From positions 270,001 to 302,000 of the forward strand of contig JBAQRV010000001.1 of assembly GCA_049296095.1 (NCBI GenBank): DNA of 32,000 nucleotides. Reading direction: 5' to 3'. Source of the DNA: Candidatus Saccharimonadota bacterium. Lineage in GTDB: Bacteria; Patescibacteriota; Saccharimonadia; Saccharimonadales; Saccharimonadaceae. Position 1 is the stretch's first letter, and every line of letters starts with the position of its first letter. This document shows positions 1 to 24,007 of the stretch, in pieces. The position numbers and the translations under genes are program-made. The notes beneath the pieces were generated by a model, which worked only from the letters and a program-made list of their open reading frames with translations, had not been told where the DNA came from and searched no databases.

Positions 1-3000
1 ATGTGACAGTAAATGTTCCGCTCGAAGTAAAGCGATGAATCGTATTGCCACCCGAAGTAGTGATCGTTCCACCCGTCGCCGTCATCGTACCGGTAGGATA
101 GGAGATAATAACCACACCAGAGCCACCGGCACCACCATTTCCGCCGCCATCGCCTCCGCCGCCGCCACCGCCGCCTCTGTTCGCCGTGCCCGCTGCGCCT
201 GCAGTCGGACCGCCACCTTGGCCACCAACACCGCCAGCACAACCCGCCGCCCCTACACCATTAGTAACATTTGCCCAACGGCCACCGCTACCACCGCCTG
301 CGTAGCAGACACTTGCACCACTTATTGAAGTTGTATAGCCGGCCCCTCCTGTACCCGAGACACCTGCGCTCATAGCACCTGTTGCATTACCACCTGCGCC
401 CGTTGCGCCACCGCCACCACCACCTTGACCTGCAGTAGAGTCAGAGGATCCATTACCCCCTCTGTTCCCACGACCGATAGTCCCGAGCATACCCGCACCG
501 GCAACTCCCGTTGCTGCGTCGATCGTCCCTGCGCCGCCGCCACCAGAACCACCTATTGTCGCCTGAGAAACAGAGTTTGTGTTAATGCGCCCGCCGCCGC
601 CGCCGCCGCCTAGAGAGATAATTGTTGAGAATACCGAAGTACCACCCATTCCGCCTGGAGTACCGATGCCAACACCACCACTTCCTCCAGCACCAACCGT
701 TACGGCATACGCCTGCTGGCTTACAACTACCGTACCTTCAGAAACACCGCCACCACCACCGCCACCTGCGTGGTTATTTCCGCCGCCGCCACCGCCACCA
801 ACTACCAGCGCTTGTACCGTTGCTAGTTGTTCTGTATCTGGTACGGGTCGAAAAGCTGCACTATAAGAATAGGGGATTGTACTACTTGTAGACCAGACAA
901 AACCGGCTAACCAACTTGCATCGGTACGAGTTAATATAGAGCTGTCAGATAATTTCCGAACTGAAAGGCTAAACCCAGCGCCACCACTAACATTGTAGTC
1001 TGAAACCGCAAACTGATGTTCACCCTCAGTAAGAGTCACGTTTACCGTATAGACATTGTTATATGAGCCTGAAGCGATGATAGTACCATCAAGATAGATA
1101 TCACAGGTTTCATCGCAGTTATATGTCACCCTCACATCAGTCGGTGAAGTAACCGTAATTGTTCGACTATCGCGAAAGAATGAGTACTGCGCCGACGGGG
1201 AATTACCGGAGCCATCATAATTATGCACTGTCGTAATCCAACGCGCACCCGCATCGCTACTATTACTTGTCCATGCGCTGTTAACTGCCTGTGCACTAAA
1301 CCTATCTCGACTCACTCCCCACATACTTGATAACGCATCAAAATCCTTATGTGCAAAGTTAACCGTGTCACCGGCCGTTGCTCGCCAACTGCGATCTGTC
1401 ACTGCAACTGGGATTGAAGCACCTTCTTGAATGACGCTCGCTTCAAAACGAGCAGCATTGTTTGCTAAGTCTGGACTCAGGTTAATCAAACGTACAAATA
1501 CATTGTGACATCCACTCGATAAAGTGACACTACCGGATCCGAGAGTGCCCGCTTCAGACCTAGTAATATACTTCCCGTCGACATATATATATGCACTATC
1601 GTTCACACCAGACACCTGTACGCCAACGTTATAAGTTCCTGCATTCGTCACGCTAAAGTCTTTCCTGTAGTAGGTCGAGCCGGGATTTAAAGCACTGTCA
1701 GAAATACTTATTGTCTGCGCTAAAGACGTGGGAGAGTAATCGACCTGAGTACTCGTAAGAACAGCTGCTTGCCAACCTAATGTGCTCGAAGTTGCCCCGG
1801 AACATAGATCGGGAACGACCGCCGCCTGGACGCTTGGTTGAGTGTAAGTTCGCCAGACCGATCCATTCGATGTACGAGTAATTTCCGTATAGCCAGTATT
1901 AGGGATAGTGACCGCTTTGCCATCACTATCGAGAGTCGGGCGACCCACACTAAATGAACTGCGGACATTGCCGTTCTGGGTTACGAAACATTGCGGGCCG
2001 CTAGGGCAGGGGGCAGAACTTGAACTTGTCACAGTAAAGGTACCACTCGATGTAAAGGTGTGGGTCGTGCGTCCACCAGAAGTGGTGATCGTGCCCCCGG
2101 TTGCCGTTATCCATCCGGTTGGATAAGAAATAATAACAATACCAGAGCCACCATTACCACCCTTATTATTAGAGTTATAGTGAGACCCTCCGCCGCCGCC
2201 GCCGCCAGTATTAGCGCCAGCGTTACCTCCTGGCGTATTCGTTTGAGCGTTCGGACTACCACCGCCACCAGGCGATCCGTTATTAATACCTAGCGTACCG
2301 CCAAGCGTTACACCGACAGCGCCACCGCCGCCACCGCCAATACCTCCATTGCCGCCAGCAGATAATGTATAAGCAGCGCCACCGCCGCCACCGCCAAAGT
2401 AATATGAACTGATATCTGAATATCGGATTCCAGCCCCTCCGTTTGCCTGGGCAGGTCCACTAGTACCAGCACCACCCGCACCACCACCACCACCTGAATA
2501 ATATGTGGTTGAGGTGGAACCACCTCCATTGTTTCCTTGTCCAAGAGTACCAAGTCCACCGGGCATAAGTGGTGCTCCAGCCGTATAGCCACTTGAACCA
2601 CCGCCGCTGCCACCGGCAGCACCGCCTGGACCAGGCATGTAGATATGATGGGAGCTACCACCTCGGCCACCGCCGAGCGCGTTCACAACCTCAGCACTAT
2701 CGGCTGTATCGGTCGTATCCCGTCCGTACACCTCAACTCGGGCTGTACGATTCATTCCCGATGTACCGCAACAACTATACCAGTCTCCCGCGCTGTAACT
2801 CCCTTGTTTTAGACCGATACCTCCACCCGCATCATCCGAAGTATAGACACCAGCACCGTTCTCATTAAAACGAAAACCCCAGCGTGCTGCGGCGCTACTC
2901 ACACCCAGATCTCCTAGCTTTGTACCCCAGGCAGATGGCCCGGGAGGACCAGTTTGTTGGATTGGTTGGCTACTGAACGCAGTCGAGAAGTACGGTGAGG

Positions 3001-3952
3001 ATGTATGATTACCCCAGTTTCTAAATTCATTGAATCCCTGTAGGGCTGTCCGGCTCGACCATGCACTTGAATGGAGCCAACGCCTATCATCAGCATCTGG
3101 CCATCGAGCCATCAAATCAGTCACTGATGATTCGTTGAATGAACGGAACTTCGCATCGCCGTCATTTCTATTCAATGCCGATTCATTCAACGTATTGGCT
3201 GTATCCCAATAACTAGAGCTGTATGAAAAAGTCGTTCCCCGAGTTGCCTTCATAAGAAGTGTCCAGCCGCCGCCAGTATAAGTCATGTCACAATATGCCT
3301 GGAACGGGCTATTTGGGCCTGTCGTGTCGGGATCAATCCAGTACACGCCATCTGTGTTAATGCCGTCTAGCTTTAGTGAGTAGCAACTTTTACCGGGGAT
3401 GCTCGAACTCGAGCCATAAGTTGGGATAGAGGCAGGCTTAATCGACGAATTTTCTCCATTTTTTGCCGGAATAGTAAACTGGTGAGCAGAAGCTTGACCG
3501 TTAGTACCCCCAGCAGGAGCGCCAGCGCCACCCGCACCGACAGTCACTGTGTACGCCTGGTTTGATATTGGAAGGTCTGCGTTGTACACAACACCACCGC
3601 CACCACCGCCACCGCCCATATCCATACCACCGCCGCCGCCGCCAGCCACGATGAGAGCGCGCACAGTCGGAGCAGACAACTCGTTACCAGCACAATCGGT
3701 CGAGGGGGTGAGCGGCTTCGCATCAGTCCACTGCGGCACATTCTCACTTGCCGTAAGACAGGCTTTCGCGTAAGCAACCCCAGCCTCACCAGCCATCTGA
3801 GCAAGTTGCTGATAGTACTGGGTTTTAAGAGTTGTCCGCACCGCAGCGGTTGCCGAAACGGAAATAGCAAGAATAGACAATAAGATAACTGAAGCAATCA
3901 ACACTGTCGGCAGTGCAAAACCTTTTTTAAAACTGGTGTGCATGGAATGCAT
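1..3952 (-). CDS. Giant secreted/surface protein whose C-terminus is cut by the window edge. It has a prepilin/PilX_N-like N-terminal segment, two polyglycine-rich modules, an inserted fibrinogen-C-like domain and two beta-sandwich repeats.
   Basis: Manual frame check: minus-strand codons starting at 3952, 3949 and so on contain no TAA/TAG/TGA down to position 2 (1,317 codons). The upstream in-frame stop is at 3964..3962, the first ATG at 3952 and a second ATG at 3943. The gene is missing from the track because no stop lies inside the window. N-terminus: MHSMHTSFKKGFALPTVLIASVILLSILAISVSATAAVRTTLKTQYYQQLAQMAGEAGVAYAKACL. Long G-runs occur, e.g. ALIVAGGGGGGMDMGGGGGGGGVVYN..YTVTVGAGGAG. YCDMTYTGGGWTLLMK is present, and the motif GSG(I/V)VIISYPTG..TATGGTITTSGG.T.H.FTSSGTFTVT occurs twice. 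Confidence 0.85.
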   Translation of the reverse strand, partial: MHSMHTSFKKGFALPTVLIASVILLSILAISVSATAAVRTTLKTQYYQQLAQMAGEAGVAYAKACLTASENVPQWTDAKPLTPSTDCAGNELSAPTVRALIVAGGGGGGMDMGGGGGGGGVVYNADLPISNQAYTVTVGAGGAGAPAGGTNGQASAHQFTIPAKNGENSSIKPASIPTYGSSSSIPGKSCYSLKLDGINTDGVYWIDPDTTGPNSPFQAYCDMTYTGGGWTLLMKATRGTTFSYSSSYWDTANTLNESALNRNDGDAKFRSFNESSVTDLMARWPDADDRRWLHSSAWSSRTALQGFNEFRNWGNHTSSPYFSTAFSSQPIQQTGPPGPSAWGTKLGDLGVSSAAARWGFRFNENGAGVYTSDDAGGGIGLKQGSYSAGDWYSCCGTSGMNRTARVEVYGRDTTDTADSAEVVNALGGGRGGSSHHIYMPGPGGAAGGSGGGSSGYTAGAPLMPGGLGTLGQGNNGGGSTSTTYYSGGGGGAGGAGTSGPAQANGGAGIRYSDISSYYFGGGGGGAAYTLSAGGNGGIGGGGGGAVGVTLGGTLGINNGSPGGGGSPNAQTNTPGGNAGANTGGGGGGGSHYNSNNKGGNGGSGIVIISYPTGWITATGGTITTSGGRTTHTFTSSGTFTVTSSSSAPCPSGPQCFVTQNGNVRSSFSVGRPTLDSDGKAVTIPNTGYTEITRTSNGSVWRTYTQPSVQAAVVPDLCSGATSSTLGWQAAVLTSTQVDYSPTSLAQTISISDSALNPGSTYYRKDFSVTNAGTYNVGVQVSGVNDSAYIYVDGKYITRSEAGTLGSGSVTLSSGCHNVFVRLINLSPDLANNAARFEASVIQEGASIPVAVTDRSWRATAGDTVNFAHKDFDALSSMWGVSRDRFSAQAVNSAWTSNSSDAGARWITTVHNYDGSGNSPSAQYSFFRDSRTITVTSPTDVRVTYNCDETCDIYLDGTIIASGSYNNVYTVNVTLTEGEHQFAVSDYNVSGGAGFSLSVRKLSDSSILTRTDASWLAGFVWSTSSTIPYSYSAAFRPVPDTEQLATVQALVVGGGGGGGNNHAGGGGGGGVSEGTVVVSQQAYAVTVGAGGSGGVGIGTPGGMGGTSVFSTIISLGGGGGGGRINTNSVSQATIGGSGGGGAGTIDAATGVAGAGMLGTIGRGNRGGNGSSDSTAGQGGGGGGATGAGGNATGAMSAGVSGTGGAGYTTSISGASVCYAGGGSGGRWANVTNGVGAAGCAGGVGGQGGGPTAGAAGTANRGGGGGGGGDGGGNGGAGGSGVVIISYPTGTMTATGGTITTSGGNTIHRFTSSGTFTVT
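2..811 (-). repeat. Polyglycine-rich module, copy 2 (uninterrupted)
   Basis: ALVVGGGGGGGNNHAGGGGGGGVSEGTVVVSQQAYAVTVGAGGSGG...TSVFSTIISLGGGGGGG...NRGGGGGGGGDGGGNGGAGGSGVVIISYPTGTMTATGGTITTSGGNTIHRFTSSGTFTVT. The terminal 41-aa motif (nt 2..124) parallels nt 2027..2149. Confidence 0.7.
905..1741 (-). repeat. Two tandem beta-sandwich-like (PA14/CBM-like) repeats inside the giant protein
   Basis: Repeat 1 (about 1379..1741): ...YYRKDFSVTNAGTYNVGVQVSGVNDSAYIYVDGKYI...GCHNVFVRLINLS...ARFEASV...VTDRSWRA. Repeat 2 (about 905..1378): ...FFRDSRTITVTSPTDVRVTYNCDETCDIYLDGTII...GEHQFAVSDYNVSGGAGFSLSV...TRTDASWLA. Both share the pattern F....V......V.V....D...IY(V/L)DG..I....G.H.F.V......F.(A/L)SV....TD.SW.A. 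Confidence 0.5.
2027..3658 (-). repeat. Polyglycine-rich module, copy 1 (interrupted by the fibrinogen-like insert)
   Basis: Runs from ALIVAGGGGGG...QAYTVTVGAGGAG through the insert and ...GGGGGGGSHYNSNNKGGNGGSGIVIISYPTGWITATGGTITTSGGRTTHTFTSSGTFTVT. It has the same order of elements as copy 2. Confidence 0.7.
2720..3394 (-). other. Fibrinogen C-terminal-like (FReD) domain embedded in the giant protein
   Basis: Translation: GKSCYSLKLDGINTDGVYWIDPDTTGPNSPFQAYCDMTYTGGGWTLLMKATRGTTFSYSSSYWDT...RTARVEVYGR. This matches the hallmark pattern SC..L...G....G(V/I)Y.I.P......PF.(V/A)YCDM.T.GGGWT(V/L) of fibrinogen-related domains. Confidence 0.7.
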
Positions 3953-3987
3953 ATTGTTTAGTTAGCCCTACTCAAATACTTGGCACT

Positions 3988-3996
3988 ATTGTACCA
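3988..3996 (-). promoter_or_regulatory. Extended -10 box TGgTACAAT upstream of the giant gene
   Basis: The reverse complement of attgtacca reads tggtacaat. A 35-nt leader follows to ATG 3952, with no obvious SD. Confidence 0.45.
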
Positions 3997-4076
3997 TAAG
4001 CAGCATAGCTAGGCCGTATTTACTCAGCCGAATAATTACTGTATAATGTATAGTGAAATCAAGAGAGGGAACAATC

Positions 4077-4352
4077 ATGACTACCGCAACGCCACAAATC
4101 ACCATTTATCGCACCAGCTGGTGTGCTTTCTGCCACACCGAAGCGCAGTGGCTCGAACGACTCGGTATTCCTTTTATCGAAAAAGATATCGAAGCTGACC
4201 CAGAAGCAAATGCCGAGCTAATGAAAAAGATCAACAACGACTTCCGCGGCGTACCCGTCACAGATGTCGCTGGTGATATCATCCTTGGGTTTGACCGTCC
4301 AAAGCTCCAAGACGCCATCAAAGCACACAACATCCAACCCGCTACTGCCTAG
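4077..4352 (+). CDS. Glutaredoxin-like / NrdH-like thiol-disulfide oxidoreductase
   Basis: ITIYRTSWCAFCHTEAQWLERLGIPFIEKDI carries a CxxC motif in a thioredoxin-fold context. I prefer ATG 4077, which is preceded by GAGAGGGA, over the track's GTG 4053. A TATAAT box lies at 4042-4047. Confidence 0.8.
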   Translation: MTTATPQITIYRTSWCAFCHTEAQWLERLGIPFIEKDIEADPEANAELMKKINNDFRGVPVTDVAGDIILGFDRPKLQDAIKAHNIQPATA

Positions 4353-7450: not shown

Positions 7451-7912
7451 ATGGCCACCAAGAAAAAGCCCCTCAAACCTCGCGCAATCCTCAATCGTCG
7501 CGCGTCTTTTGACTATGCCCTCGACGAAGAGCTCGTAACAGGCATTGTCCTGACCGGCAGAGAGGCCCGAGCCGCTCGAGACGGGCGAGTCCAACTAAAA
7601 GGCTCGTTCGTAACAATCAGGAATAATGAACTTTGGCTTAACAATGCCAGTTTCAGTCTCGTTCTCAACAGTAAAACGGACAATTCTACCTCTGTTGATA
7701 CTTCTCCCAGAAAACTCCTGGCCAGCCGCAAGCAAATCGAGGAACTTGCCGAGCGCAAACAAGCGGGGATGAGTATCGTCCCGATAAAACTCCTCACCCA
7801 AGGTAACTATATCAAGTTGGTCATTGCGCTCGGTAAGGGCAAGAAGAACTACGATAAGCGTCAGGCCATTAAACAACGCGACCAAGAACGCGAAAATAAA
7901 ATTCGTTTATAA
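7451..7912 (+). CDS. smpB: SsrA-binding protein SmpB
   Basis: NRRASFDYALDEELVTGIVLTGREARAARDGRVQLKGSFV...ELWLNNASFSL, about 150 aa with a basic C-terminal tail. Confidence 0.9.
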   Translation: MATKKKPLKPRAILNRRASFDYALDEELVTGIVLTGREARAARDGRVQLKGSFVTIRNNELWLNNASFSLVLNSKTDNSTSVDTSPRKLLASRKQIEELAERKQAGMSIVPIKLLTQGNYIKLVIALGKGKKNYDKRQAIKQRDQERENKIRL

Positions 7913-7913
7913 T
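7908..7913 (+). promoter_or_regulatory. -10 TATAAT overlapping the smpB stop, 6 nt upstream of xth ATG
   Basis: cgtttaTAATagtcatATG reading as TATAAT + agtcat + ATG(7920). Confidence 0.4.
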
Positions 7914-7919
7914 AGTCAT

Positions 7920-8720
7920 ATGAAACTCTACTCCTGGAACGTCAATGGCATCCGCGCCGTCATCAATAAGGGCGCTTTCCAAACTTTTATGGCTGAGCAC
8001 CAACCAGATATCTTGTGTCTCCAGGAAACAAAGGCCAAGCAAGGCCAGGCAGAAATCGACCTAACTGGCTATGAGGAATACTGGAACAGTGCCGACAAGG
8101 CTGGTTATAGCGGGACGGCCATTTTCAGTAAATTCAAACCGATCCAGGTATTAAACGGGTTTGCTGATGCGATTGCTGAAAAATACAACCTTGCAGGTGA
8201 TAGTTACGGTGATCCAACCAAAGAGGGACGCGTCATTTCAGCCGAATTCAACGACTTCTGGGTCGTCACTGTCTACACTCCAAACTCAAAGGGTGATTTA
8301 AGTCGTCTTGAACTACGCCATACACAGTGGGATCCAGCTTTTCTTGAACATATTAAAGAACTTGAAAAGACTAAGCCTGTACTGTTTTCGGGTGACCTTA
8401 ACGTTGCTCATGCTGAAATCGACTTGGCAAATCCTAAAGCCAATATCGGCAAGCATGGGTTCACCAACGAAGAGCGCGAAGGGTTTGATAACTTTGAAAA
8501 AGCGGGGCTATTCGATACTTTCCGAACTCTGCATCCGGACCAAACCGAGGCCTACACATGGTGGACACACTGGGCCAACGCCCGCGCTCGTAATGTCGGG
8601 TGGCGGATTGATTACTGGCTAGCCAGCGATTCATTGAAAGATAAGGTTAAATCTGCCCAAATTCATCCCGATGTCATGGGCTCTGACCACTGTCCTGTCA
8701 GTATTGAACTGGATATCTAA
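7920..8720 (+). CDS. xth: Exodeoxyribonuclease III (AP endonuclease, Xth/ExoA family)
   Basis: MKLYSWNVNGIRA...PDILCLQETKA...SGDLNVAH...WRIDYWL...GSDHCPV. Start taken at M33 of the track ORF, since the earlier part overlaps smpB. Confidence 0.9.
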   Translation: MKLYSWNVNGIRAVINKGAFQTFMAEHQPDILCLQETKAKQGQAEIDLTGYEEYWNSADKAGYSGTAIFSKFKPIQVLNGFADAIAEKYNLAGDSYGDPTKEGRVISAEFNDFWVVTVYTPNSKGDLSRLELRHTQWDPAFLEHIKELEKTKPVLFSGDLNVAHAEIDLANPKANIGKHGFTNEEREGFDNFEKAGLFDTFRTLHPDQTEAYTWWTHWANARARNVGWRIDYWLASDSLKDKVKSAQIHPDVMGSDHCPVSIELDI

Positions 8721-9193
8721 TGCAGAAGAAGACATTATCTTTATTATTCCTCCGAAAAGACGATGAAGTATTACTCGCCATGAAAAAGCGAGGCTTCGGT
8801 GAAGGCCGCTGGAACGGCGTCGGCGGTAAGGTCGAAGAAGGTGAATCGATCGAGCAAGCTATGATTCGCGAAACCCAAGAGGAAATTGGCGTCACACCAA
8901 CTGCCTATCAAAAGGTGGGGGATATTCGTTTCGATGAATTCTTTAAAGGCGTCCCGACACTGATGCACGTTCACATTTTTATCGCCTCTGAATGGACCGG
9001 CGAACCAGCCGAGAGTGAAGAAATGGCCCCGAAATGGTTTAAAACAGATGAAGTGCCGTACGACGATATGTGGCCTGACGACCCCTACTGGCTCCCACAA
9101 GTATTACAGGGGAAAAAGATCTCGGCTGATTTCAAACTCGACGAATCGGATACTATAGTTTCTCATGATAGTAAGGAAGTGGCGGTAGTCTAA
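8720..9193 (+). CDS. NUDIX hydrolase (MutT-like)
   Basis: Nudix box GGKVEEGESIEQAMIRETQEEIGV. The start overlaps the xth stop (TAATG). Confidence 0.85.
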   Translation: MQKKTLSLLFLRKDDEVLLAMKKRGFGEGRWNGVGGKVEEGESIEQAMIRETQEEIGVTPTAYQKVGDIRFDEFFKGVPTLMHVHIFIASEWTGEPAESEEMAPKWFKTDEVPYDDMWPDDPYWLPQVLQGKKISADFKLDESDTIVSHDSKEVAVV

Positions 9194-9194
9194 T

Positions 9195-9923
9195 ATGAAA
9201 TTGTCGCCATCAACACTCCAACGTCTTGAAACCTTATCAAAGAGCGAAAAAGTTTACGTTCCAAACAGCAATGCCCAGGCAGCAATTCACAATCGTTACC
9301 TCATTGAACTTATCGGTCCAGCCGCTGGAGGCAAGTCTACAATTATGGGGCATGCTCAAGCCAAGGACACCGACTTTTCATACGTGACCGGTTTTACAAC
9401 CAGAGGACCTGAGCCACGAGATGTTCCAGGACGGTATTACTACTACAATACCGACGAAGAGGTGAACACTCTTATTGACCACATTGAAAAAGGTGACGTG
9501 CTCCAGTACGTCACCCATCCAACAAGTGGTCAATTGTACGGTTCATTTCCTAGTGACTATAAGACAAGTTATAACATGCTCGATACGCTTTTTAATACCG
9601 TTGCTGAACTTGATAGACTTCCATTCAAGGGAGTTCTCAAGATCGCGATCGTTTCGCGCGGCAATAGTTGGGCAGATCTATTCCTAGAACGATATCCCAA
9701 ACCATCTCAGGAAAGAACAAAACGTATCAACGAAGCAGTCTTGTGTCTTAACTGGATGATAAATGAGGCTCCTGACGATATGATATGGCTCGAAAATCCA
9801 TGGGGTACGGCTGAGTTAGCAGCCGATAATCTTATTTCACTCATAAAGGGTTCTAAAAAGACTGAGGATCTGCGACCTCTTGCTGTCGAAATGCTCGAAC
9901 GCGCAAAAGGTATTGCGGCATAA
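9195..9923 (+). CDS. Guanylate-kinase-like P-loop kinase (divergent)
   Basis: Walker A GPAAGGKST. GFTTRGPEPRDVPGRYYYY resembles the GMK TTR.PR..E..G..Y.F block, and LYGS follows later. The start lies 1 nt after the upstream stop. Confidence 0.5.
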   Translation: MKLSPSTLQRLETLSKSEKVYVPNSNAQAAIHNRYLIELIGPAAGGKSTIMGHAQAKDTDFSYVTGFTTRGPEPRDVPGRYYYYNTDEEVNTLIDHIEKGDVLQYVTHPTSGQLYGSFPSDYKTSYNMLDTLFNTVAELDRLPFKGVLKIAIVSRGNSWADLFLERYPKPSQERTKRINEAVLCLNWMINEAPDDMIWLENPWGTAELAADNLISLIKGSKKTEDLRPLAVEMLERAKGIAA

Positions 9924-10708
9924 TGGACTACTCCTACTGGAAAAAACAAACGCCAGGCACTCCACTCTTTCCTGATATCGAATGGAGCAAACCCGAACAA
10001 CGTGGTCAGGCCGGCAAGCTCGGCATTATCGGTGGCAACAAACTAGGCTTCGCGGGCGTCGCCGAAGCATACACTATCGCGACCGAAGCGGGTGTCGGAC
10101 AAGTGCGAGTGCTCCTGCCTGATGTCTTAAAAAAAGCTATCCCGAGTACCATTACTGACGCCGTCTTTGGACCAACCAACCCCTCTGGTAGTCTCACCAA
10201 AGAAGCCGTTGCCGAAATGAATGCAGTGGGCGAGTGGGCGAACAGTATTCTCTTGATTGGCGATGCTGGACGTAGCAGTGAAACAGCCATCGCCTACGAG
10301 CAATTCATCCAAAACTATCATGGACAACTCGTCCTCACTCGTGATGCGATTGATCTTGTTAAACATAGTTCCCAAACACTTGTTGATCGTCCAGACACGC
10401 TCCTGGTAGCGTCGTTTGCACAGCTGCAGAAATTATTTCAGCTGGTGTATTACCCAAAAGTGCTCACTTTTAGTATGCAGCTCACTAATTTAGTCGAGGC
10501 CGTTCATAAATTTACCATTACGTATCCTGTCAGTTTGGCAGTGCTTCATAAGGACCACCTGGTCATCGCCAGTGGTGGGGAAGTCGTCACTGTACCCTGG
10601 GACAATCCAATGGCGATCTGGCGGGGAAGTGTCGCGGCCAGAGCAGCCGCCTATTGGCTCTGGAGTCCAAAAAAACCGCTTGAAGCGGTCACAACGTCGA
10701 TTAAATAA
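9923..10708 (+). CDS. YjeF_C / carbohydrate-kinase-like domain protein (NAD(P)H-hydrate dehydratase-like, divergent)
   Basis: GKLGIIGGNKLGFAGVAEAYTIATEAGVGQVRVLLP resembles the G.v.iGGs..y.GA..la..aa...GaG.v.v block. The usual C-terminal GSGD motif is not evident (WRGSVAARAAAYWLW). The start overlaps the upstream stop (TAATG). Confidence 0.45.
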   Translation: MDYSYWKKQTPGTPLFPDIEWSKPEQRGQAGKLGIIGGNKLGFAGVAEAYTIATEAGVGQVRVLLPDVLKKAIPSTITDAVFGPTNPSGSLTKEAVAEMNAVGEWANSILLIGDAGRSSETAIAYEQFIQNYHGQLVLTRDAIDLVKHSSQTLVDRPDTLLVASFAQLQKLFQLVYYPKVLTFSMQLTNLVEAVHKFTITYPVSLAVLHKDHLVIASGGEVVTVPWDNPMAIWRGSVAARAAAYWLWSPKKPLEAVTTSIK

Positions 10709-10809: not shown

Positions 10810-10892
10810 ACGTATCAACGGGGATAATGTGAGTCCAGCCGTCGCTGGAAGTACCAATGTATTGTACAATAGAACCTAGTAGGAATAAAGAT

Positions 10893-12125
10893 ATGAACCC
10901 TGATAAAAGCAGTCCTGGTGGAGATATGCCAACGCCTTCGTTGTCAGGGAGTTCGATACCCCCAAATCCAGCCCCTTCAACACAGGACGCCGCAGCTAAT
11001 GTTATCCGCTCACAAATCGATCAACTCTATAATAATACCTCCGCTCCTGACAACTCAAGAGAAGTGACACCTGTCGCACAGGTACATGAAGAACCAGTCA
11101 AGCAAGCGATTCTCGCCGACACCAATCCCTATCATCGCACCCACACGCCTCATTCCACTCCGCAGGCTGACCAGTGGAAAGAGTATCACAGCGCATGGCA
11201 GAATTATTACCAGAAATATTACGAGAACTATTACACTCAGACAGCCGCACAAGCACAGCAACCTCAGGGAAGTCATTATTTTTCTGGCTCATCACGGCAG
11301 CCTGAAAGAATTGAAGAGACCGCAGAAGAGCTGTCCAACGACCAAGCACTCTATGAGCTTCGACAAAAACTTCTTGGCAAAGTACAGGCTTCGGCAAAAA
11401 AGATCCGACGCAGCCGTCATTTCGTTCCCATTGCCGCGGCTCTTGGTGTCGTCCTCATTTTTGTGTTCCTCCAATATAACCGTGTCTTCATCGCCAACGT
11501 CGCCGCCTACGTCTCTCCTGGCAGTATTGATCCGCAGAATATTGTCGTTGATCCATCTAATGATATCGTCGTCAGCAACGACCCTCGACTCATCATCCCA
11601 AAGATCAATGTCGATGTCCCTGTACTCTATGATGTCGGGACTGACAATGCCTCCCAAATGGCTGCCATGGAAAAAGGAGTGGCTCATTTCCCAATCCCTG
11701 GGGCAAACAGTCATCCCGGCGAAATAGGCAATACCGCCATTGCAGGGCACAGTAGCAATGACCTGTTTGATCAGGGTGATTACAAGTTTATTTTTGCTCA
11801 GCTCGAGAAACTGGCACCAGGCGATAGTATATACGCCAACTACCAAGGCAAACGCTACACCTACGTTGTCACAAAAATGGAAGTCGTGAAACCAAATGAA
11901 ATCGGCAAGCTAGTGTATCCAACTGACAAACCCGTCCTCACCCTGATTACCTGCACCCCACTGGGTACCGCTATTAACCGTTTGCTTGTCACTGCCGAAC
12001 AAGTGAGCCCCGACCCTTCAGCAGCCGCTGCAGCCCCAGAAGGCGCTGGCCAGGGCGATGACACCAGTGCTATCCCAGGCAATTCACCAACCTTATTCGA
12101 ACGACTATTCGGCGGCGGTAACTAG
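10893..12125 (+). CDS. Sortase family transpeptidase (class E-like) with a long N-terminal cytoplasmic extension
   Basis: Catalytic His in TAIAGHSSN, TLxTC in LTLITCTP, Arg in NRLLVTAEQ. TM segment HFVPIAAALGVVLIFVFLQY. The N-terminal extension of about 180 aa is Q/Y/W-rich (WKEYHSAWQNYYQKYYENYY). ATG 10893 is preceded by AGGAA. The track start 10857 abuts the tRNA. Confidence 0.85.
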   Translation: MNPDKSSPGGDMPTPSLSGSSIPPNPAPSTQDAAANVIRSQIDQLYNNTSAPDNSREVTPVAQVHEEPVKQAILADTNPYHRTHTPHSTPQADQWKEYHSAWQNYYQKYYENYYTQTAAQAQQPQGSHYFSGSSRQPERIEETAEELSNDQALYELRQKLLGKVQASAKKIRRSRHFVPIAAALGVVLIFVFLQYNRVFIANVAAYVSPGSIDPQNIVVDPSNDIVVSNDPRLIIPKINVDVPVLYDVGTDNASQMAAMEKGVAHFPIPGANSHPGEIGNTAIAGHSSNDLFDQGDYKFIFAQLEKLAPGDSIYANYQGKRYTYVVTKMEVVKPNEIGKLVYPTDKPVLTLITCTPLGTAINRLLVTAEQVSPDPSAAAAAPEGAGQGDDTSAIPGNSPTLFERLFGGGN

Positions 12126-13594
12126 TCGAGGATCATTTTCACGCGCTGGAGATAGTAGCTGTCACCCGACTTCACCATGCTGTAAAGATAGCGACCATTT
12201 TGGCTCAACGTAACGTCTAAACCTTGTGCAACCGAGTTAATAGTGTGGCTATTCGTGCCATCGAACTCGCGAATAACCAAGGTACCGCCATAATCAGTCC
12301 ATAGATATGCATTATCTAACCAGTGGAGTTGCGGTACGGGCTGGTCAGCGATCGCCGTGATAGAACCAGTCGTGGCTCGCTCATGCTCTAGCTCATAGCC
12401 GACAAAGCTCAGCCCTGACTGCACCACCAAGTAGTCGCCGTCTTCACTAAAGGAAAGCTGCGAAACCGCTCCGTTAACCGTCAGTTCATGTTGAACTTTC
12501 AGGCTTGAGACATCATCATTGCTCGAGGTTGGGTAGGTACCCTTTAGAACGGTCACTTTTAGCCCTTCGGCTATCACGACATAATCATCATTGCGATATA
12601 TGACCATGTCAATAAACAGGGGAGTCTCGAGCGATGAAACGGTGCGAAGAACGTGCGGTGCCGCATCACCATCACGATACACCCCAGCCACCTGCTGGGC
12701 GGCATTATTCGGATCAATACCGACATAACTAATCCTATTCGTCTCAGACAGATCAAACGTCTTCACATTACTAATAAGCGGTCGAGAAATTGTCGCAGCT
12801 GATACGTCAAGCTTACGAACCGTCCCATCACTTAACAGGCCGTAGAGTAGCGAGCCATTCGTGCCAGCAAACTCTAGTTGAGACACAGAGATGCTCAAGA
12901 GACGGCTAATATTGACGCTAGCATCAGGATTTTGCGTATCGAACACGATCCATTCACCCGTGTCATTATAGGCGTGCTTTAGAAGCACATAGCGACCACC
13001 CAGGTCCCAGTGATCCAGCGTGAAACTATGGGTCACACCAGCCGTCGTTGCCTCACTATACGCAGCTGCGGGCAATGCGATGGCTGTCGACTTAATATCC
13101 TGCGAACGAAGGTCGACCAGCTGGAAAGTTGGCGTATCGGTTTTTTCTTGAATAATGAGTGTCTTTAGGTCTGGTGAGGCTTTTTCACCAACGATAGTTG
13201 AATACGTCGCAACCGTTTCTGGTTTGAGATCCTTGGGAACTAATCGAATGTAATCAAGCCAGGTGAGCGTACCGGCCTTCACAGTCAGAGATTTTGCCCA
13301 TGACTCGTAGCCATTCTTACTCACGACAAACGAATGCGCACCAGCTAGTACCGATTGTTTGCCAGCCGTTCGCACGCCAGTTGGTTTACTGTCGATTGCT
13401 ATGTCCGCACCAGCAGGCACTGACTCAAACTGCAGCAAAGCACCTTGTTCGAGGCGACCCTTTTCACTATCGAGGCGAAAGCCCAAAATGAAGAGAATCG
13501 TACCCGTGACAATCACCAAGACGGCGAGAACCGAAATGACTGACACAATAATGCGCTGAAGTAATAACTGCTTCTTTGAAGGTCGTCGATACAT
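12122..13594 (-). CDS. PEGA-domain membrane protein with a C-terminal beta-propeller-like region
   Basis: N-terminal TM segment IIVSVISVLAVLVIVTGTILFILGF. PEGA-type block FESVPAGADIAIDSKPTG...AGAHSFVVSKNGYESW. The stop codon shares the palindrome CTAG (12122-12125) with the sortase stop. Confidence 0.75.
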   Translation of the reverse strand: MYRRPSKKQLLLQRIIVSVISVLAVLVIVTGTILFILGFRLDSEKGRLEQGALLQFESVPAGADIAIDSKPTGVRTAGKQSVLAGAHSFVVSKNGYESWAKSLTVKAGTLTWLDYIRLVPKDLKPETVATYSTIVGEKASPDLKTLIIQEKTDTPTFQLVDLRSQDIKSTAIALPAAAYSEATTAGVTHSFTLDHWDLGGRYVLLKHAYNDTGEWIVFDTQNPDASVNISRLLSISVSQLEFAGTNGSLLYGLLSDGTVRKLDVSAATISRPLISNVKTFDLSETNRISYVGIDPNNAAQQVAGVYRDGDAAPHVLRTVSSLETPLFIDMVIYRNDDYVVIAEGLKVTVLKGTYPTSSNDDVSSLKVQHELTVNGAVSQLSFSEDGDYLVVQSGLSFVGYELEHERATTGSITAIADQPVPQLHWLDNAYLWTDYGGTLVIREFDGTNSHTINSVAQGLDVTLSQNGRYLYSMVKSGDSYYLQRVKMILD

Positions 13595-19222: not shown

Positions 19223-19879
19223 GTGGCGCGACGAACCATCAAAGCGCCCAGCAAGCTCATAGCCGAGTCGCTCTTCGATGATCATTCAGAACTTACAACG
19301 CTATATCCGAAGGTAAGGCCGATCAATTCAAATCCGATTTCAACACCCGCCGAAATCGCCGAGCGTCACCAAAAGGCACTCGATAACCAAGTGCGGTCGC
19401 TTCGAAACATGACATTTAAAATCGGACTTTTCATCGCCGGGCCCTATATCCTTGCCCTGTTCACAATTCAACAGGTTATTATCCGCATTGTGTATATTAG
19501 CCCGGGTGACATTGGCGGGGGAATGTCGATCGTATTCGCCAGCTTTCTGTTCGCGACCGCGACTGTCTTTTCTACTTATTTCTTATTCCACCGCGTAAAG
19601 GAGATTTTCAATCACAGCCACGGACTGAAGGTTTGGCCCATTATGACAACCATCGTCGTCAGTATGATCGGCATCACACCACTACTATTCCGTTTCGTTG
19701 ACCTACTTCCCATTGGTGGGTTGTTGGGTTATTTTACTACCCTGGCACTCGTTGTCGGCGTCACAATCGCTCTCACCGGCAGCCTGCTCTATATCTGGAC
19801 AACCAAACTTAATCCTAGAATTAAAATTGGTATCCTCATACTATACATCGCCATTTTCACAGTGTTATTTTTTATATAA
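19223..19879 (+). CDS. Hypothetical polytopic membrane protein
   Basis: GTG start 3 nt after the RR1 stop. Four to five hydrophobic segments (FKIGLFIAGPYILALFTI, MSIVFASFLFATATVFSTYFLF, IMTTIVVSMIGITPLLF, LLGYFTTLALVVGVTIALTGSLLYIW, IGILILYIAIFTVLFFI). The start codon is uncertain. Confidence 0.55.
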   Translation: MARRTIKAPSKLIAESLFDDHSELTTLYPKVRPINSNPISTPAEIAERHQKALDNQVRSLRNMTFKIGLFIAGPYILALFTIQQVIIRIVYISPGDIGGGMSIVFASFLFATATVFSTYFLFHRVKEIFNHSHGLKVWPIMTTIVVSMIGITPLLFRFVDLLPIGGLLGYFTTLALVVGVTIALTGSLLYIWTTKLNPRIKIGILILYIAIFTVLFFI

Positions 19880-20011: not shown

Positions 20012-20086
20012 GCGGTCCCATCGTCTAACGGTTAGGACACCAGGTTCTCATCCTGGCAATCCGGGTTCGATTCCCGGTGGGATCAC
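20012..20086 (+). tRNA. tRNA-Glu (anticodon CTC), CCA encoded
   Basis: GGTCCCA-TC-GTCTAACGGTTAGGAC-A-CCAGG-TTCTCAT-CCTGG-CAAT-CCGGG-TTCGATT-CCCGG-TGGGATC-A-CCA. Confidence 0.9.
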
Positions 20087-20095
20087 CAATATTAT

Positions 20096-20149: not shown

Positions 20150-20638
20150 ATGGGAGTTGAGCAGAGTTGGCTGCGAACGGACGGCAAGGCGGGTTCTGTA
20201 GATTTAGCCATTTTAGCTAATGAGGGGAAGGCTACTATTCAATCGGTCAGCTTCAGAACACTTAGCAAGCTTCGGTACACACTCAGCCCTCTTGATGGTA
20301 CAGAACTCCAGTCGGCGGATGGCATTATCACACCTGTACATCTTGAATTCGATCCTTGGGCAAGAATGAATGGCGGGTTTATTGAAGAAACAGGCATAGC
20401 CTTGCGATCTATCAAACAGTGGGTGACTGAACGTCGACACTTTCCCAACCCTGGAGAAGTTGCTATTGCGAACGCTATCGTTCGTGAAGGTGATCCGCTT
20501 GTCATTAATGGACGAGAGACAAGTCCTGTTGATGTCGCCTGGGTTACGGAGTTCGTTGATCTCTCGGAAGCATCCATGATTACAAGGGATTCTGAAACTG
20601 ACGTAGCAACTGGCGAAATGTCATTTGCTCATTTTTAA
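20150..20638 (+). CDS. Hypothetical protein (no recognisable motif)
   Basis: 162-aa ORF with a canonical AAGGAG SD 7 nt upstream and its own promoter. Confidence 0.6.
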   Translation: MGVEQSWLRTDGKAGSVDLAILANEGKATIQSVSFRTLSKLRYTLSPLDGTELQSADGIITPVHLEFDPWARMNGGFIEETGIALRSIKQWVTERRHFPNPGEVAIANAIVREGDPLVINGRETSPVDVAWVTEFVDLSEASMITRDSETDVATGEMSFAHF

Positions 20639-20665: not shown

Positions 20666-20950
20666 TTGTTCCATGTCCCTATATTCGGAGGGTGGCGACA
20701 TTATACGTTGTTTGAGGCGTCACAAGAAGAGTTCCATATTGGCTGGGCCAGTCGAATCAATAGGAAGCTAGCCCAAGCGGCAATTCATCGATTGACACTT
20801 TTTGATGGGCATGTTCGAATGTTGAATGGAGCGGGCAACTCAGAGACAGATTTTTTCGCAGTAGATCCAGATGGTATACAAATCGACATCCAGGTTGCTG
20901 GCACAGGAGTGCTTGGCGACAGTCAATTTCCTGGAACTCGGCTGCTTTAG
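20666..20950 (+). CDS. Hypothetical ORF in the same frame as 20150..20638, separated from it by a single TAA. It may be the severed 3' part of one gene.
   Basis: TTG start, no SD. 20666-20150=516, a multiple of 3. The 9 codons between the TAA (20636-20638) and 20666 contain no stop. Confidence 0.3.
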   Translation: MFHVPIFGGWRHYTLFEASQEEFHIGWASRINRKLAQAAIHRLTLFDGHVRMLNGAGNSETDFFAVDPDGIQIDIQVAGTGVLGDSQFPGTRLL

Positions 20951-21202: not shown

Positions 21203-21961
21203 ATGACCCTCAATGAGCCTCGTGATTCCTTTCCTAGCGACGCTGAATTAGCGTCTTTTCTTGAGGAAAGCACCCGAGAAATGCAACAAGAGAACGAAGA
21301 CCCTGAAAAAGCTCAGGCTCTCCACAACCAACGCCTCGAAGATGAGGCTAATGTGATCATCATAGAGGTATTGGAGCGGAAGGGATACACACCATCGACA
21401 GATAATGTTATCGCCTTTAAAGAGCAACACCTTCTCAAGGAAGCTTCACAAATTCTTCGAATATATCAAGACTGCCTGGAAACGCCTTTAACAATAGCGC
21501 AAGGGGATTTTTTTAACCGAGCAAAAAAACGCTTGTTCGCCGTTGGAGCAGTCACCCATGGACTTCCGACAGATGCTCCTATCTTTGCCATTCTTGAAGA
21601 CATCTTACCTGGTGAAAAAGTCGACTTTGACGATGAAAATATGACCGAATTTTCACTCGAAGCAATGGAGATACTTGCCAACACAAGGGTACGCGAACAG
21701 CACTGGTTTGAATTTCATAATGGTCTGCGCGGTCTGATCGAATCCTTCAGCGGATCGGCTGATGAAGACTTCGGTCAATCAATATCTCAGGGCCTAATCA
21801 ATTTTACAGATGATATCATTACACTCCTAAATCGAAAAACTATCACCGACCGCGAAAGAGCACAGCTTCTCGACTATCTCGCGAAGGGTTCCTCATTCGG
21901 CTATAACGTTGCTCAGGGTATCATTACCTACACAAAAGAGCACAAACACCTCCTCGAATAA
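21203..21961 (+). CDS. Hypothetical acidic, probably helical protein
   Basis: 252-aa ORF rich in E/D/L (EESTREMQQENEDPEKAQALHNQRLEDEANVIIIEVLE...). No family recognised. Confidence 0.6.
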   Translation: MTLNEPRDSFPSDAELASFLEESTREMQQENEDPEKAQALHNQRLEDEANVIIIEVLERKGYTPSTDNVIAFKEQHLLKEASQILRIYQDCLETPLTIAQGDFFNRAKKRLFAVGAVTHGLPTDAPIFAILEDILPGEKVDFDDENMTEFSLEAMEILANTRVREQHWFEFHNGLRGLIESFSGSADEDFGQSISQGLINFTDDIITLLNRKTITDRERAQLLDYLAKGSSFGYNVAQGIITYTKEHKHLLE

Positions 21962-22051: not shown

Positions 22052-24007
22052 TTGTCATTGTCACGATTTTGGCACCGCCGAATTTATGAGGTGGTCTTTT
22101 TGCTATGCTTAGCTATTATCGCTCTCTACGTCGTGCCGATCGTCACAAATGTATCAGCGACCGGCTTATTCGGTATTAGCATTTGGGTAGCGATGAGCGC
22201 TGGCGTGACCGCTCTGGCAAGTTTGGCGCTTTACATCTTTAGTCCAAAACAACCACATTACGTCCTACCCCTGATGGTATACCTATTGTTTGCCGCCACC
22301 GTCGCACTACTTGTGATTCAAACGGGCGGCACGATGTCACCATTTATCGCCCTCTGGATGCTAGTGTCATTCTTTGGCGGTATTTTTGCCGTCTGGGGGG
22401 CAGTCCCTTTACTGGTTGCAAGTGCGGCTTTTATCGCCTCAATCTATCTCAATGGGGAGCTGTCGATCGGCGCAGTAGCATTAGTCGCCTTTACCTCAGT
22501 CGTTCCTCTCATTATCAGTATCGTTATCTGGCGCGACCAAGGTGAAAATGATGAAGCAACCAAAAATGTCAAAAACCTCGCCAGCCAGCTATCCGAGGTA
22601 GCGAATAAATCTGAAATTGTCATTAACGCCATTGGTGACGGCGTGATAGCTATTGATAGTCAAGGGGTCATCCAACTCATCAACCCCGCTGGACAGGAAC
22701 TCTTGGGATGGGGGAAGCAAGACGCCTTGATGCTTAATTACAAGTCAGTCTTACAGATGACCGACCAGAATAATCATGAAATAACACCCGAAAACGACCC
22801 GATTCGCCAGGTGCTGAACACCAACCAACAAATGCGCTCAAACAACCTTATTATCCTGACAAAATCAGGTAAAAAGATTAACGCCTCGATCGTCGTGTCG
22901 CCAATCGGTGAGTCTGGCAACGGAGTTATCACGGTATTTAGTGATATCACCAAGCAAAAAGCTGAAGAGCGCGAGCAAGCCGAATTCATCAGCACCGCCA
23001 GTCACGAAATGCGGACGCCGGTTGCTTCTATCGAAGGGTACTTGGGACTCGCACTGAACCCAAATACCGCCACAATTGATGAAAAGGCCCGTGACTTTAT
23101 CATGAAAGCCCACGAAGCCGCTCAGCACCTTGGACGCCTCTTCCAGGACCTGCTCGACGTCTCTAAATCCGAGGATGGCCGTATGACGAGCATACCGAAA
23201 GTTGTTGATATGACCGTCTTTACTCAGACGATTGTTCAAGGGTTAGCACCAAAGGCTCAAGAAAAGGGTCTCAAACTTGTCTATGTACCATCCGAAAATG
23301 ATGGGGTGAGAAAGATCGCCCCAGTATATTTTGTTAATCAGGATAACGACCATATCCGAGAAGTCCTAGATAATTTAATTGAAAACGGCATCAAATACAC
23401 GCCAAAAGGCGAGGTCATTGTCGACATCAATGGCACGGACGATAAAGTCATTGTCAGCGTCAAGGATACAGGTCTCGGCATCCCAGCCGAGGATATCCCG
23501 CATCTCTTTCAAAAATTCTACCGCGTCGATAATATCGACCGTCAGGCAATTGGCGGCACTGGCCTCGGCCTCTTCCTGTGTCGTCGTCTGGCCGAAGCTA
23601 TGGGTGGCCGACTTTGGGTAGAAAGTGTCTACACCAAAGGAAGCACCTTCTTCTTTGAACTACCTCGAGTCAACAGCCAAGACGCTACGCGGCTAAAGGA
23701 ACAGCAAGCCCTCCAGGCACAACAAGCCGCTGCTACACAGCCAACTGCTACAGCGCCTGTATTCACTCCTGCTCCTCAGGCCGCCACACCAGCCAGTACG
23801 CCTGCGCCGACCCCAATACCGACTTCATCCGAAACCAAACCAGCGACGACCGTCCCGCGCGGCGAGAGCCTCACCCGTGAACAAATTGCCGAGCATGTCC
23901 GTCAGCTCCAGGCGATGGCTCGTGGCACACAAACAGTCCCGCAACGCCCAGTCACACAGATCCCCGTCAGTGACGGATCACCACCTCCTGGACCACCCCA
24001 AGCATAA
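22052..24007 (+). CDS. Sensor histidine kinase (HK2) with polytopic N-terminus, PAS-like region and a P/A/T/Q-rich C-terminal tail
   Basis: H-box ASHEMRTPVASIEGY, N-box NLIENGIKYT, DTGLGIP, GTGLGLFLCRRLAEAMGG. The tail reads QALQAQQAAATQPTATAPVFTPAPQAATPASTPAPTPIPT...GSPPPGPPQA. The TTG start at 22052 is uncertain. Confidence 0.85.
   Translation: MSLSRFWHRRIYEVVFLLCLAIIALYVVPIVTNVSATGLFGISIWVAMSAGVTALASLALYIFSPKQPHYVLPLMVYLLFAATVALLVIQTGGTMSPFIALWMLVSFFGGIFAVWGAVPLLVASAAFIASIYLNGELSIGAVALVAFTSVVPLIISIVIWRDQGENDEATKNVKNLASQLSEVANKSEIVINAIGDGVIAIDSQGVIQLINPAGQELLGWGKQDALMLNYKSVLQMTDQNNHEITPENDPIRQVLNTNQQMRSNNLIILTKSGKKINASIVVSPIGESGNGVITVFSDITKQKAEEREQAEFISTASHEMRTPVASIEGYLGLALNPNTATIDEKARDFIMKAHEAAQHLGRLFQDLLDVSKSEDGRMTSIPKVVDMTVFTQTIVQGLAPKAQEKGLKLVYVPSENDGVRKIAPVYFVNQDNDHIREVLDNLIENGIKYTPKGEVIVDINGTDDKVIVSVKDTGLGIPAEDIPHLFQKFYRVDNIDRQAIGGTGLGLFLCRRLAEAMGGRLWVESVYTKGSTFFFELPRVNSQDATRLKEQQALQAQQAAATQPTATAPVFTPAPQAATPASTPAPTPIPTSSETKPATTVPRGESLTREQIAEHVRQLQAMARGTQTVPQRPVTQIPVSDGSPPPGPPQA

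Follow-up and report, generated by a model that had tools for sequence, protein, structure and literature searches.

The first 4 kb of the 32,000-nt stretch analyzed here (hereafter the window; contig JBAQRV010000001.1 from a Candidatus Saccharimonadota bacterium) are occupied by a single gene that is real and nearly complete; its ~1,320 codons specify a surface protein of an ultrasmall Saccharibacterium. The list of open reading frames (ORFs) that accompanied the sequence shows only short plus-strand ORFs in this region, and the original prediction was that these are antisense artefacts lying over a giant, unlisted ORF. Direct translation of the minus strand bore this out, as the frame remains open from the ATG at position 3952 down to base 2 (1,317 codons, zero stops) and its product begins MHSMHTSFKKGFALPTVLIASVILLSILAISVSA...QQLAQMAGEAGVAYAKACL, the same residues quoted in the prediction. 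The ORF is missing from the list because the lister excludes ORFs that run off an end, and its stop lies outside the window, as had been supposed. The listed plus-strand ORFs are products of GGN-rich (i.e., Gly-rich) coding on the other strand; 33 of the 96 residues encoded by ORF 579-866 are Pro, and ORF 35-328 is rich in Thr, Ala and Arg. A protein search of 5.8 billion sequences returned >1,800 homologues (E <= 1e-5). Since these include full-length proteins that are 92, 79, and 65% identical (P0001, P0002, and P0003, respectively), the gene is real.

The product had been described as longer than 1,317 amino acids (aa), and a much longer one was not borne out. The three closest full-length homologues measure 1,320, 1,318, and 1,313 aa, and all end in ...TFT(V/I)TSIN. 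In addition, the final 49 nt of the window ORF are identical to the orthologous locus L001, which carries the 92% orthologue, and L001 then continues TCA ATC AAC TAA, i.e., Ser-Ile-Asn and a stop. Therefore, the protein is ~1,320 aa long, with its stop 11 nt outside the window, and the orthologue ends and the L001 DNA rule out a much larger protein running on past the window. Coordinates of the gene and its parts are collected in Table 1. There is no clear Shine-Dalgarno sequence upstream of ATG 3952, and a further in-frame ATG occurs at 3943. An extended -10-like element, TGGTACAAT (3988..3996, minus strand; 36 nt upstream of ATG 3952), may serve as the promoter, a call that is weak because a consensus scan showed no two-hexamer site on the minus strand.

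The predicted Saccharibacterium host agrees with the closest loci, which belong to metagenome-assembled genomes (MAGs) of Candidatus Microsaccharimonas and Saccharimonadales. When one genome per species was scanned, 112 loci were found to encode the N-terminus of the giant protein, nearly all of them in Candidatus Saccharibacteria, Microsaccharimonas, or Saccharimonadales MAGs (best identity 70-80%). The family is large within the Saccharimonadales, where its members are labelled "glycine-rich domain-containing protein" or hypothetical in databases. The suggestion that this exact domain combination is not a described family was overstated, since members are numerous and automatically annotated and pilin-like "PilX" proteins with large accessory domains are known in Saccharibacteria (PMC11623550).

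Synteny with pil genes had also been envisaged, and instead the window gene and its orthologous loci were found to sit between a glutaredoxin gene and the ATP synthase operon. The order glutaredoxin <- -> X -> atpBEFHAGDC is present in L001, L003, and L004 and in about half of 80 GTDB loci fetched. In this slot the gene is divergent from glutaredoxin, directly upstream of and co-oriented with atpB-E-F-H-A-G-D-C, and encodes a product of 511 to 1,619 aa. Since the same slot is occupied across loci, we conclude that the gene is chromosomal and passed on vertically, its head end being constant and its passenger variable, and that it belongs to no prophage or pilus locus. The linkage to glutaredoxin and the atp operon recurs in many Saccharimonadales species (window 1-4352; L001, L003, L004, L005-L081), and ATP synthase has been reported to be dispensable in Southlakia (PMC10633639).

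Table 1. Positions in the window of the giant-protein gene, its parts, and the adjacent glutaredoxin gene.
Feature	Residues (aa)	Position	Strand	Remarks
Giant-protein coding sequence	1-1317 of ~1,320	2..3952	-	Remaining three codons and stop lie left of the window
Basic leader MHSMHTSFKKG	1-11	3920..3952	-	Gly at -1 of putative prepilin-peptidase site G↓FALPT
Alpha-1-like helix	12-68	3749..3919	-	Invariant FALPT(V/I)LI(A/S)S hydrophobic half and amphipathic half
N-module part 1	4-96	3665..3952	-	Leader, helix, and loop with conserved C65 and C87
548-aa insertion	97-644	2021..3664	-	Gly_rich_2 domain 1 and closing YPTG..TATGGTITTSGG.T.H.FTSSGTFTV hairpin
Fibrinogen-like (GGGWT_bact) domain	179-414	2711..3418	-	Nested in Gly_rich_2 domain 1
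N-module part 2	645-719	1796..2020	-	Beta-strands CPSGPQCFVTQNGNVRSSFSV / KAVTIPNTGYTEITRT / GSVWRTYTQPSV
Tandem lectin-like beta-sandwich region	720-1040	833..1795	-	All-beta in AlphaFold2 model, confidence (pLDDT) mostly >90
Gly_rich_2 domain 2 and C-terminal hairpin	1041-1317	2..832	-	Best Pfam stretch aa 1043-1285, E 4e-24
Divergent glutaredoxin gene		4077..4352	+	Pfam Glutaredoxin 4.7e-11; marks the conserved slot

A split N-terminal module and its passengers

Although the family's proteins are otherwise ~45% identical, their N-terminal stretch and amphipathic helix are the most conserved part, and the helix region forms the densest block of >=90% conserved columns. This is the opposite of an ordinary anchor or Sec signal, in which such a stretch is the least conserved. 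The consensus is [KR][G/A]↓FALPT(V/I)LI(A/S)S, with Thr at +5, and reads KKG↓FALPTVLIASVILLSILAISV in the window protein. Among 113 homologues, residue -1 is Gly in 72 and Ala in 41 and nothing else, whereas F, A, L, P, and T are all invariant, including Phe+1 and Thr+5 in 113/113. Arg or Lys predominates at -2, and leaders are short and basic (medians of 12 aa and of +3 net charge). The amphipathic half of the helix carries R39, Q45, Y46, Q49, and AGEAGVAYAKAC; AlphaFold2 predicted one helix spanning residues 14-68 in both models that we made, and the only hydrophobic segment of the whole protein is at aa 9-42.

The helix belongs to an autonomous ~165-aa module (N-module) that consists of a 55-residue helix and a small beta-sheet. 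This module is always N-terminal in 801 clusters formed at the 50% identity level, whose proteins range from 145 to 1,861 aa. Stand-alone N-module proteins are 158-177 aa long, and passengers found behind the module in a sample of the others include LamG, fn3, Gly_rich_2, and DUF2341 domains. An AlphaFold2 model of a contiguous module (P0011, residues 1-172), based on 10 natural sequences, had a predicted local distance difference test (pLDDT) score of 79 and consisted of one 55-residue helix with five or six strands after it, an outline that resembles the "lollipop" of pilins.

In the window protein the N-module is not contiguous. When a profile of the contiguous module (A2) was compared to it, profile positions 4-96 matched aa 4-96 (150 bits) and positions 93-170 matched aa 645-719 (90 bits), so an insertion of 548 aa divides the ~165-aa module. 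Consistent with this, AlphaFold2 placed the strands of the second part at residues 658-704 (pLDDT about 80-90). In seven relatives (P0011, P0017, P0037, P0041, P0102, P0111, and P0119), residue ~96 leads directly into CPxxxxC-V-NGNVRSSFSV...GYxExxRTSNGxVWRTYxQ, whose counterpart in the window protein is at aa 649-705, whereas most relatives, like the window protein, have a Gly_rich_2 domain after residue ~96. That domain is not at this position in P0011, P0037, P0017, and P0119. In P0036, P0078, and P0095, it sits one beta-strand further on (about aa 96-135); the domain behaves as a mobile cassette able to occupy different loops of the N-module. In the window protein the result is a nested arrangement, in which the fibrinogen-like domain lies inside Gly_rich_2 domain 1, which itself lies inside the pilin-like module, in the loop that joins the helix to the beta-sheet.

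A glycine-rich domain had been predicted from the sequence, and this was confirmed by the Pfam hidden Markov model (HMM) Gly_rich_2 (PF21722), which scored 86.3 bits, against a gathering threshold of 24.3, over two stretches. Among predicted viral structures (BFVD), the domain matched dozens of "glycine-rich domain-containing" proteins of Caudovirales (E to 5e-17, target template-modelling score to 0.79), and these matches span the 548-aa insertion. In the region of Gly_rich_2 domain 2, PHROG 2295 was matched strongly (1e-80), and weak matches were to the tail-fibre PHROGs 6202 and 863. A tblastn search of aa 646-1317 against 50,697 GenBank phage records gave no match. Literature searches on PF21722/Gly_rich_2 and on bacterial GGGWT fibrinogen-like domains returned nothing relevant, and no paper was found on Gly_rich_2 or on the giant-protein family.

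The predicted fibrinogen domain is present in part. NCBIfam NF040941 (fibrinogen-like YCDxxxxGGGW, 46 positions) matched aa 189-233 with 63 bits against a cut-off of 30, and Pfam Fibrinogen_C (PF00147) matched aa 187-241 only (27.9 bits; profile positions 2-54 of 221). A profile of the insert built from ten relatives matched fibrinogen, FIBCD1, MFAP4, tenascin, and intelectins in the PDB (best E 7e-8), again over the first ~55 residues only, and a full-length fibrinogen-related domain (FReD) with its ligand-binding subdomain was not found. Since the similarity is limited to the first ~55 residues of the fold, we call the domain fibrinogen-like rather than a full FReD. An AlphaFold2 model of aa 1-1045 (alignment of 108 sequences, mean pLDDT 74.5) was confident in the Gly-rich segments and poor in the fibrinogen-like insert (pLDDT <50).

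A very confident all-beta stretch of that model extends from about 758 to 1030, within a region that no Pfam model matches (aa ~720-1040). By Foldseek against the PDB, its top match was the two-domain Pleurotus ostreatus lectin (POL), with E 2e-11 and 328 columns of the 338-residue target, followed by sugar-binding beta-sandwiches of beta-galactosidases, rhamnosidases, and RsgI-type sensors; in BFVD, the same region matched PA14-domain phage proteins. The fold is closer to POL and to galactose-binding-like domains than to the PA14 phage proteins. Thus, of the PA14 domain that had been proposed, a PA14/galactose-binding-like beta-sandwich stands by fold, but the PA14 HMM of Pfam gave no match at E <= 1. 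The protein contains 14 Cys in seven neighbouring pairs, of which five are conserved in the family, and its composition is 21% Gly and 53% Gly, Ala, Ser, and Thr (GAST). No LPXTG motif or C-terminal anchor was found. The single N-terminal hydrophobic segment, the paired Cys, the high GAST content, and the fold matches to lectins and phage proteins are signs of an extracellular adhesin.

Evidence for and against a minor pilin

The N-terminus had been read as that of a prepilin, and this reading stood in part: a formal class III signal is present, with a basic leader, Gly or Ala at -1, and a hydrophobic stretch of ~20 residues, but Glu at +5 is absent (Thr in 113/113 homologues) and the thresholds of curated pilin models were not reached. 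Absence of Glu5 is expected only for GspK/PilX-type tip subunits. When 26 N-termini were searched, the NCBIfam prepilin model NF007660 was the top match for 25 of them (best E 2e-4), scoring ~20 bits where the cut-off is 86; sporadic matches were to GspK, a prepilin peptidase-dependent (PpdB-like) protein, and ComGD. When the family was aligned by hhalign to 16 canonical GFT(I/L)VE pilins from the fetched loci, its G↓F site fell in register with theirs (E 7e-4, probability 27%). These NF007660 and hhalign signals may be described as weak but consistent. In the pilin fold, an alpha-1 helix of about 53 residues is packed on an antiparallel beta-sheet; the AlphaFold2 model of the N-module has a helix at 14-68 and five to six strands (pLDDT 79) and no significant match in Foldseek.

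Further support comes from the company that the N-module keeps elsewhere. In the paralogous loci L062, L065, L079, and L082, it occurs beside canonical prepilin genes. L065 (4800-8918) contains a three-gene pilin operon whose products are, in order, a GFTLVELL pilin of 284 aa, an N_methyl pilin of 758 aa bearing Ig and LamG domains, and a FALPT-type protein of 313 aa carrying phage tail Collar and Gp10_C domains; thus, phage receptor-binding modules are reused on pilin-like handles. In L079, an N_methyl pilin gene is followed by one for a 163-aa FALPT-type protein that consists of the N-module alone. In L062 and L082, the FALPT-type proteins carry an RCC1 propeller and ricin lectin domains, and their genes have GFT(L/I)xE pilin genes on both sides. 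Lastly, P0115 is a canonical Glu5 pilin (KRGFTIVEML) with two Gly_rich_2 domains, the second of which has a fibrinogen-like insert; its passenger is 53% identical to window aa 92-438, and two N_methyl pilin genes lie downstream.

Two of the loci had further features. In L082, the FALPT-RCC1-ricin gene (7908-10229) is followed by a 126-aa FALPT-type ORF (10284-10661) and by an RCC1-ricin ORF that lacks the N-terminus (10947-12536), an array suggestive of a tandem duplication disrupted by a frameshift or assembly error. L075, on a Gulosibacter macacae scaffold (NZ_RQVS01000021.1), encodes a 300-aa FALPT-type protein (7929-8828) and canonical GFTIVELL pilins at 1824-2351 and 11769-12374; either the module also occurs in Actinobacteria or epibiont DNA is present in the assembly of an actinobacterial isolate.

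Several results weigh against assignment to the pilins. Pfam N_methyl (PF07963) had no match at E <= 1 in the whole protein or at E <= 10 in the 26 N-termini, and PilX_N (PF14341; best E 0.014) and NF037980 T2SS_GspK (best E 0.0095) each matched two of the 26 below threshold; the other Pfam matches of these N-termini were only to generic transmembrane-helix families. Against the PDB, a profile of the 26 N-termini found no pilin and only diacylglycerol kinase (E 3.6), and Foldseek of the AlphaFold2 N-module gave a best E of 0.46 with no pilin in the top 50. There is no pil gene elsewhere in the window, and neither the window gene nor its orthologues are encoded with pilins or type IV pilus machinery. 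A head of ~1,150 aa would be unusually large for a pilin, and the hydrophobic stretch is followed by a VSA↓T motif, a possible signal peptidase I site.

Considering these results together, we regard it as probable that the giant protein is a modular minor pilin-like protein of the GspK/Pseudomonas aeruginosa PilX class acting as an adhesin. A more modest claim, namely that of an extracellular lectin-type adhesin anchored at its N-terminus, is very likely to be correct. The alternative that survives best is that of a cell-body adhesin or fibril held by an uncleaved signal-anchor helix, with minor-pilin ancestry but never assembled into a pilus. Its favourable points are the conserved housekeeping slot beside the atp operon and outside pil loci, the very large head, the lack of a significant pilin HMM or fold match, and the fact that PilX1 and PilX2 of Nanosynbacter lyticus TM7x are likewise without predicted PilD signals (PMC11623550). 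However, strict Gly/Ala at -1 together with invariant FALPT needs a cause beyond membrane anchoring, the N-module is also found as 160-aa proteins within pilin operons, and a canonical Glu5 pilin (P0115) bears the same passenger; we therefore judge this alternative to be rather unlikely.

Export by Sec, with a cut by signal peptidase I after VSA (aa 33-35), would yield a soluble or loosely attached lectin. Small residues at -1 and -3 are indeed found family-wide (V-S-A, V-T-A, V-S-S), and the giant protein has neither a C-terminal anchor nor LPXTG. Yet cleavable Sec signals are normally poorly conserved, whereas here a hydrophobic stretch of 21+ residues is nearly invariant, the 55-residue helix is continuous, and invariant residues lie on either side of the supposed cut. 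Such export would also leave no means of retaining the product on a cell that must attach to its host, and we consider it improbable. Origin as a prophage or phage-derived tail-fibre gene, suggested by the PHROG matches and by the fold shared with many uncultured Caudovirales proteins, is very improbable given the same grx-atp chromosomal position in dozens of species, the lack of flanking phage genes in the window, the N-terminal membrane helix, and the empty tblastn search of aa 646-1317 against phage records.

Under the minor pilin-like reading that we favor, the basic leader would stay in the cytoplasm and prepilin peptidase would cut after Gly11 (G11↓F12; Ala in many orthologues), while the invariant FALPTVLIAS helix would hold the protein in the membrane. 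Because Glu5 is missing and the head (~1,150 aa) is very bulky, the protein could be taken into a fibre only at the very start, when the pilus is primed, and so as its tip-most subunit; alternatively, it might remain a membrane-anchored stalk. Location at the pilus tip is what we infer from this. In the head, the beta-sheet is followed by two lectin-like beta-sandwiches and then by the second Gly_rich_2 domain, and the Gly_rich_2, fibrinogen-like, and tandem lectin-like modules may bind glycans of the host cell wall. The giant protein thus makes a good candidate, though an unproven one, for what holds the cell to its host bacterium.

Other genes of the window

The remaining genes of the window are of the housekeeping kind and encode, beyond glutaredoxin, an alpha/beta hydrolase, two GT4 glycosyltransferases, SmpB, a NUDIX protein, a sortase, a PEGA protein, GluRS, two-component systems, Der, Pth, DprA, and TopA. 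The sortase gene (10857-12125, plus strand) lies beside a convergent gene for the PEGA-domain protein (12122-13594, minus strand), the ends of the two overlapping by 4 nt, and the pair are also neighbours in L004, in mirrored order. The giant protein is not the substrate of this sortase, as it is without LPXTG or a hydrophobic C-terminal tail and its orthologues end in ...TFTVTSIN. A 218-aa multi-pass membrane protein (19223-19879) is encoded just upstream of tRNA-Glu (20014-20088), which is followed by three ORFs with no Pfam match (20150-20638, 20666-20950, and 21203-21961). These precede genes for a PAS histidine kinase (22052-24007, plus strand) and a response-regulator receiver protein (24053-24940, plus strand), both with long, low-complexity C-terminal tails rich in Pro, Ala, and Thr; the response regulator has no recognisable output domain.

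Known relatives and significance

Among the nearest described systems are PilX1 and PilX2 of N. lyticus TM7x, putative minor pilins of the lollipop type whose C-terminal domains are large and lectin-like; they were proposed to be tip adhesins, and their signals are not called PilD-type by SignalP (PMC11623550). PilX2 combines a seven-bladed RCC1 propeller with a non-canonical signal peptide, its deletion halves host binding, and binding of TM7x to its host is sensitive to sugars, notably rhamnose (PMC11623550). By published description, the FALPT-RCC1 proteins of L062 and L082 fit PilX2, and they share the N-module with the window protein. Compared to PilX1 and PilX2, also by description, the window protein is two to three times larger, its pilin-like module is split by an insertion, its passengers are two Gly_rich_2 domains, a fibrinogen-like domain, and a tandem beta-sandwich, and it is encoded by an orphan gene at the atp operon. 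The orphan pilin PilK of TM7x is probably not an orthologue, since PilK is reported to be low in Gly, Ala, Ser, and Thr and patchy in distribution, compared to 53% GAST here; this comparison too is by description.

Outside the Saccharibacteria, GspK and ComZ of Thermus thermophilus are precedents for a pilin fold that accommodates a large inserted domain, within the beta-sheet in the case of ComZ; both have been assigned positions at the tip, a capping one in the case of GspK (PMC7248040). In Streptococcus sanguinis, the bimodular pilin PilB has an appended module and a direct role in adhesion (PMC8179133). Like ComZ and PilB, the window protein combines a pilin-like module with a large additional domain. 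ComZ and PilB are presumably far smaller, and we take both to be canonical prepilins. In contrast to them, the window protein has an insertion of 548 aa with a further domain set into it. GspK reportedly lacks Glu5. Like GspK and P. aeruginosa PilX, the window protein has a prepilin-type leader and no Glu5, and it shares with GspK a large insertion, here in the pilin-like module; unlike in these proteins, the inserted domains are of unrelated types, the T2SS_GspK and PilX_N models matched only two of 26 N-termini below threshold, and no significant fold match was found.

The passengers have relatives of their own. By HMM and by fold, the Gly_rich_2 domain is the same as that of the phage "glycine-rich domain-containing" proteins, although in phages it is on virion proteins and here on a membrane- or pilus-anchored cellular protein encoded at a conserved chromosomal site. 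The tandem beta-sandwich aligns with nearly the whole of POL (PDB 6t1d, 6kc2) at 21% identity, and the POL structures matched were crystallised with melibiose, GalNAc, and rhamnose. The fibrinogen-like domain shares with ficolins, FIBCD1, and intelectins the N-terminal C...YCDM...GGGWT subdomain, but the ligand-binding subdomains of animal FReDs are not recognisable in it.

How ultrasmall epibionts recognise and hold their hosts is little understood; type IV pili have been implicated, and PilX2 has been tied to host binding. Already known were the family itself, present in databases as glycine-rich or hypothetical proteins, and the existence in Saccharibacteria of pilin-like proteins with large accessory domains. 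New here are the recognition of a PilX-like handle on a large, widely conserved family, the nested-insertion architecture, the pairing of domains shared with phage tail-fibre-type proteins and lectin domains, and the conserved position beside the atp operon. The finding adds a much larger, widely conserved relative that is assembled from lectin-type domains and domains shared with phage tail-fibre-type proteins, and provides a clear example of a domain within a domain within a domain in a pilin-like scaffold. Since genetics now exist for Saccharibacteria, its proposed role is directly testable. Also new is a signature, [G/A]↓FALPT(V/I)LI(A/S)S plus the ~165-aa module, which picks out about 800 clusters of candidate adhesins and so flags hundreds of proteins now annotated as "hypothetical" or "glycine-rich".

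A broader and more tentative possibility is that Saccharibacteria use one PilX-like, Glu5-less handle (~800 clusters) as a universal display platform, on which swappable heads resembling phage receptor-binding proteins would set host choice. These heads would comprise lectin, RCC1, LamG, phage-collar, and Gly_rich_2 domains, some of them inserted in loops of the pilin fold, and they would include the orphan member that many Saccharimonadales lineages keep beside the ATP synthase operon. If this is true, the heads would determine the host bacteria to which these epibionts can attach, much as tail fibres set the host range of phages.

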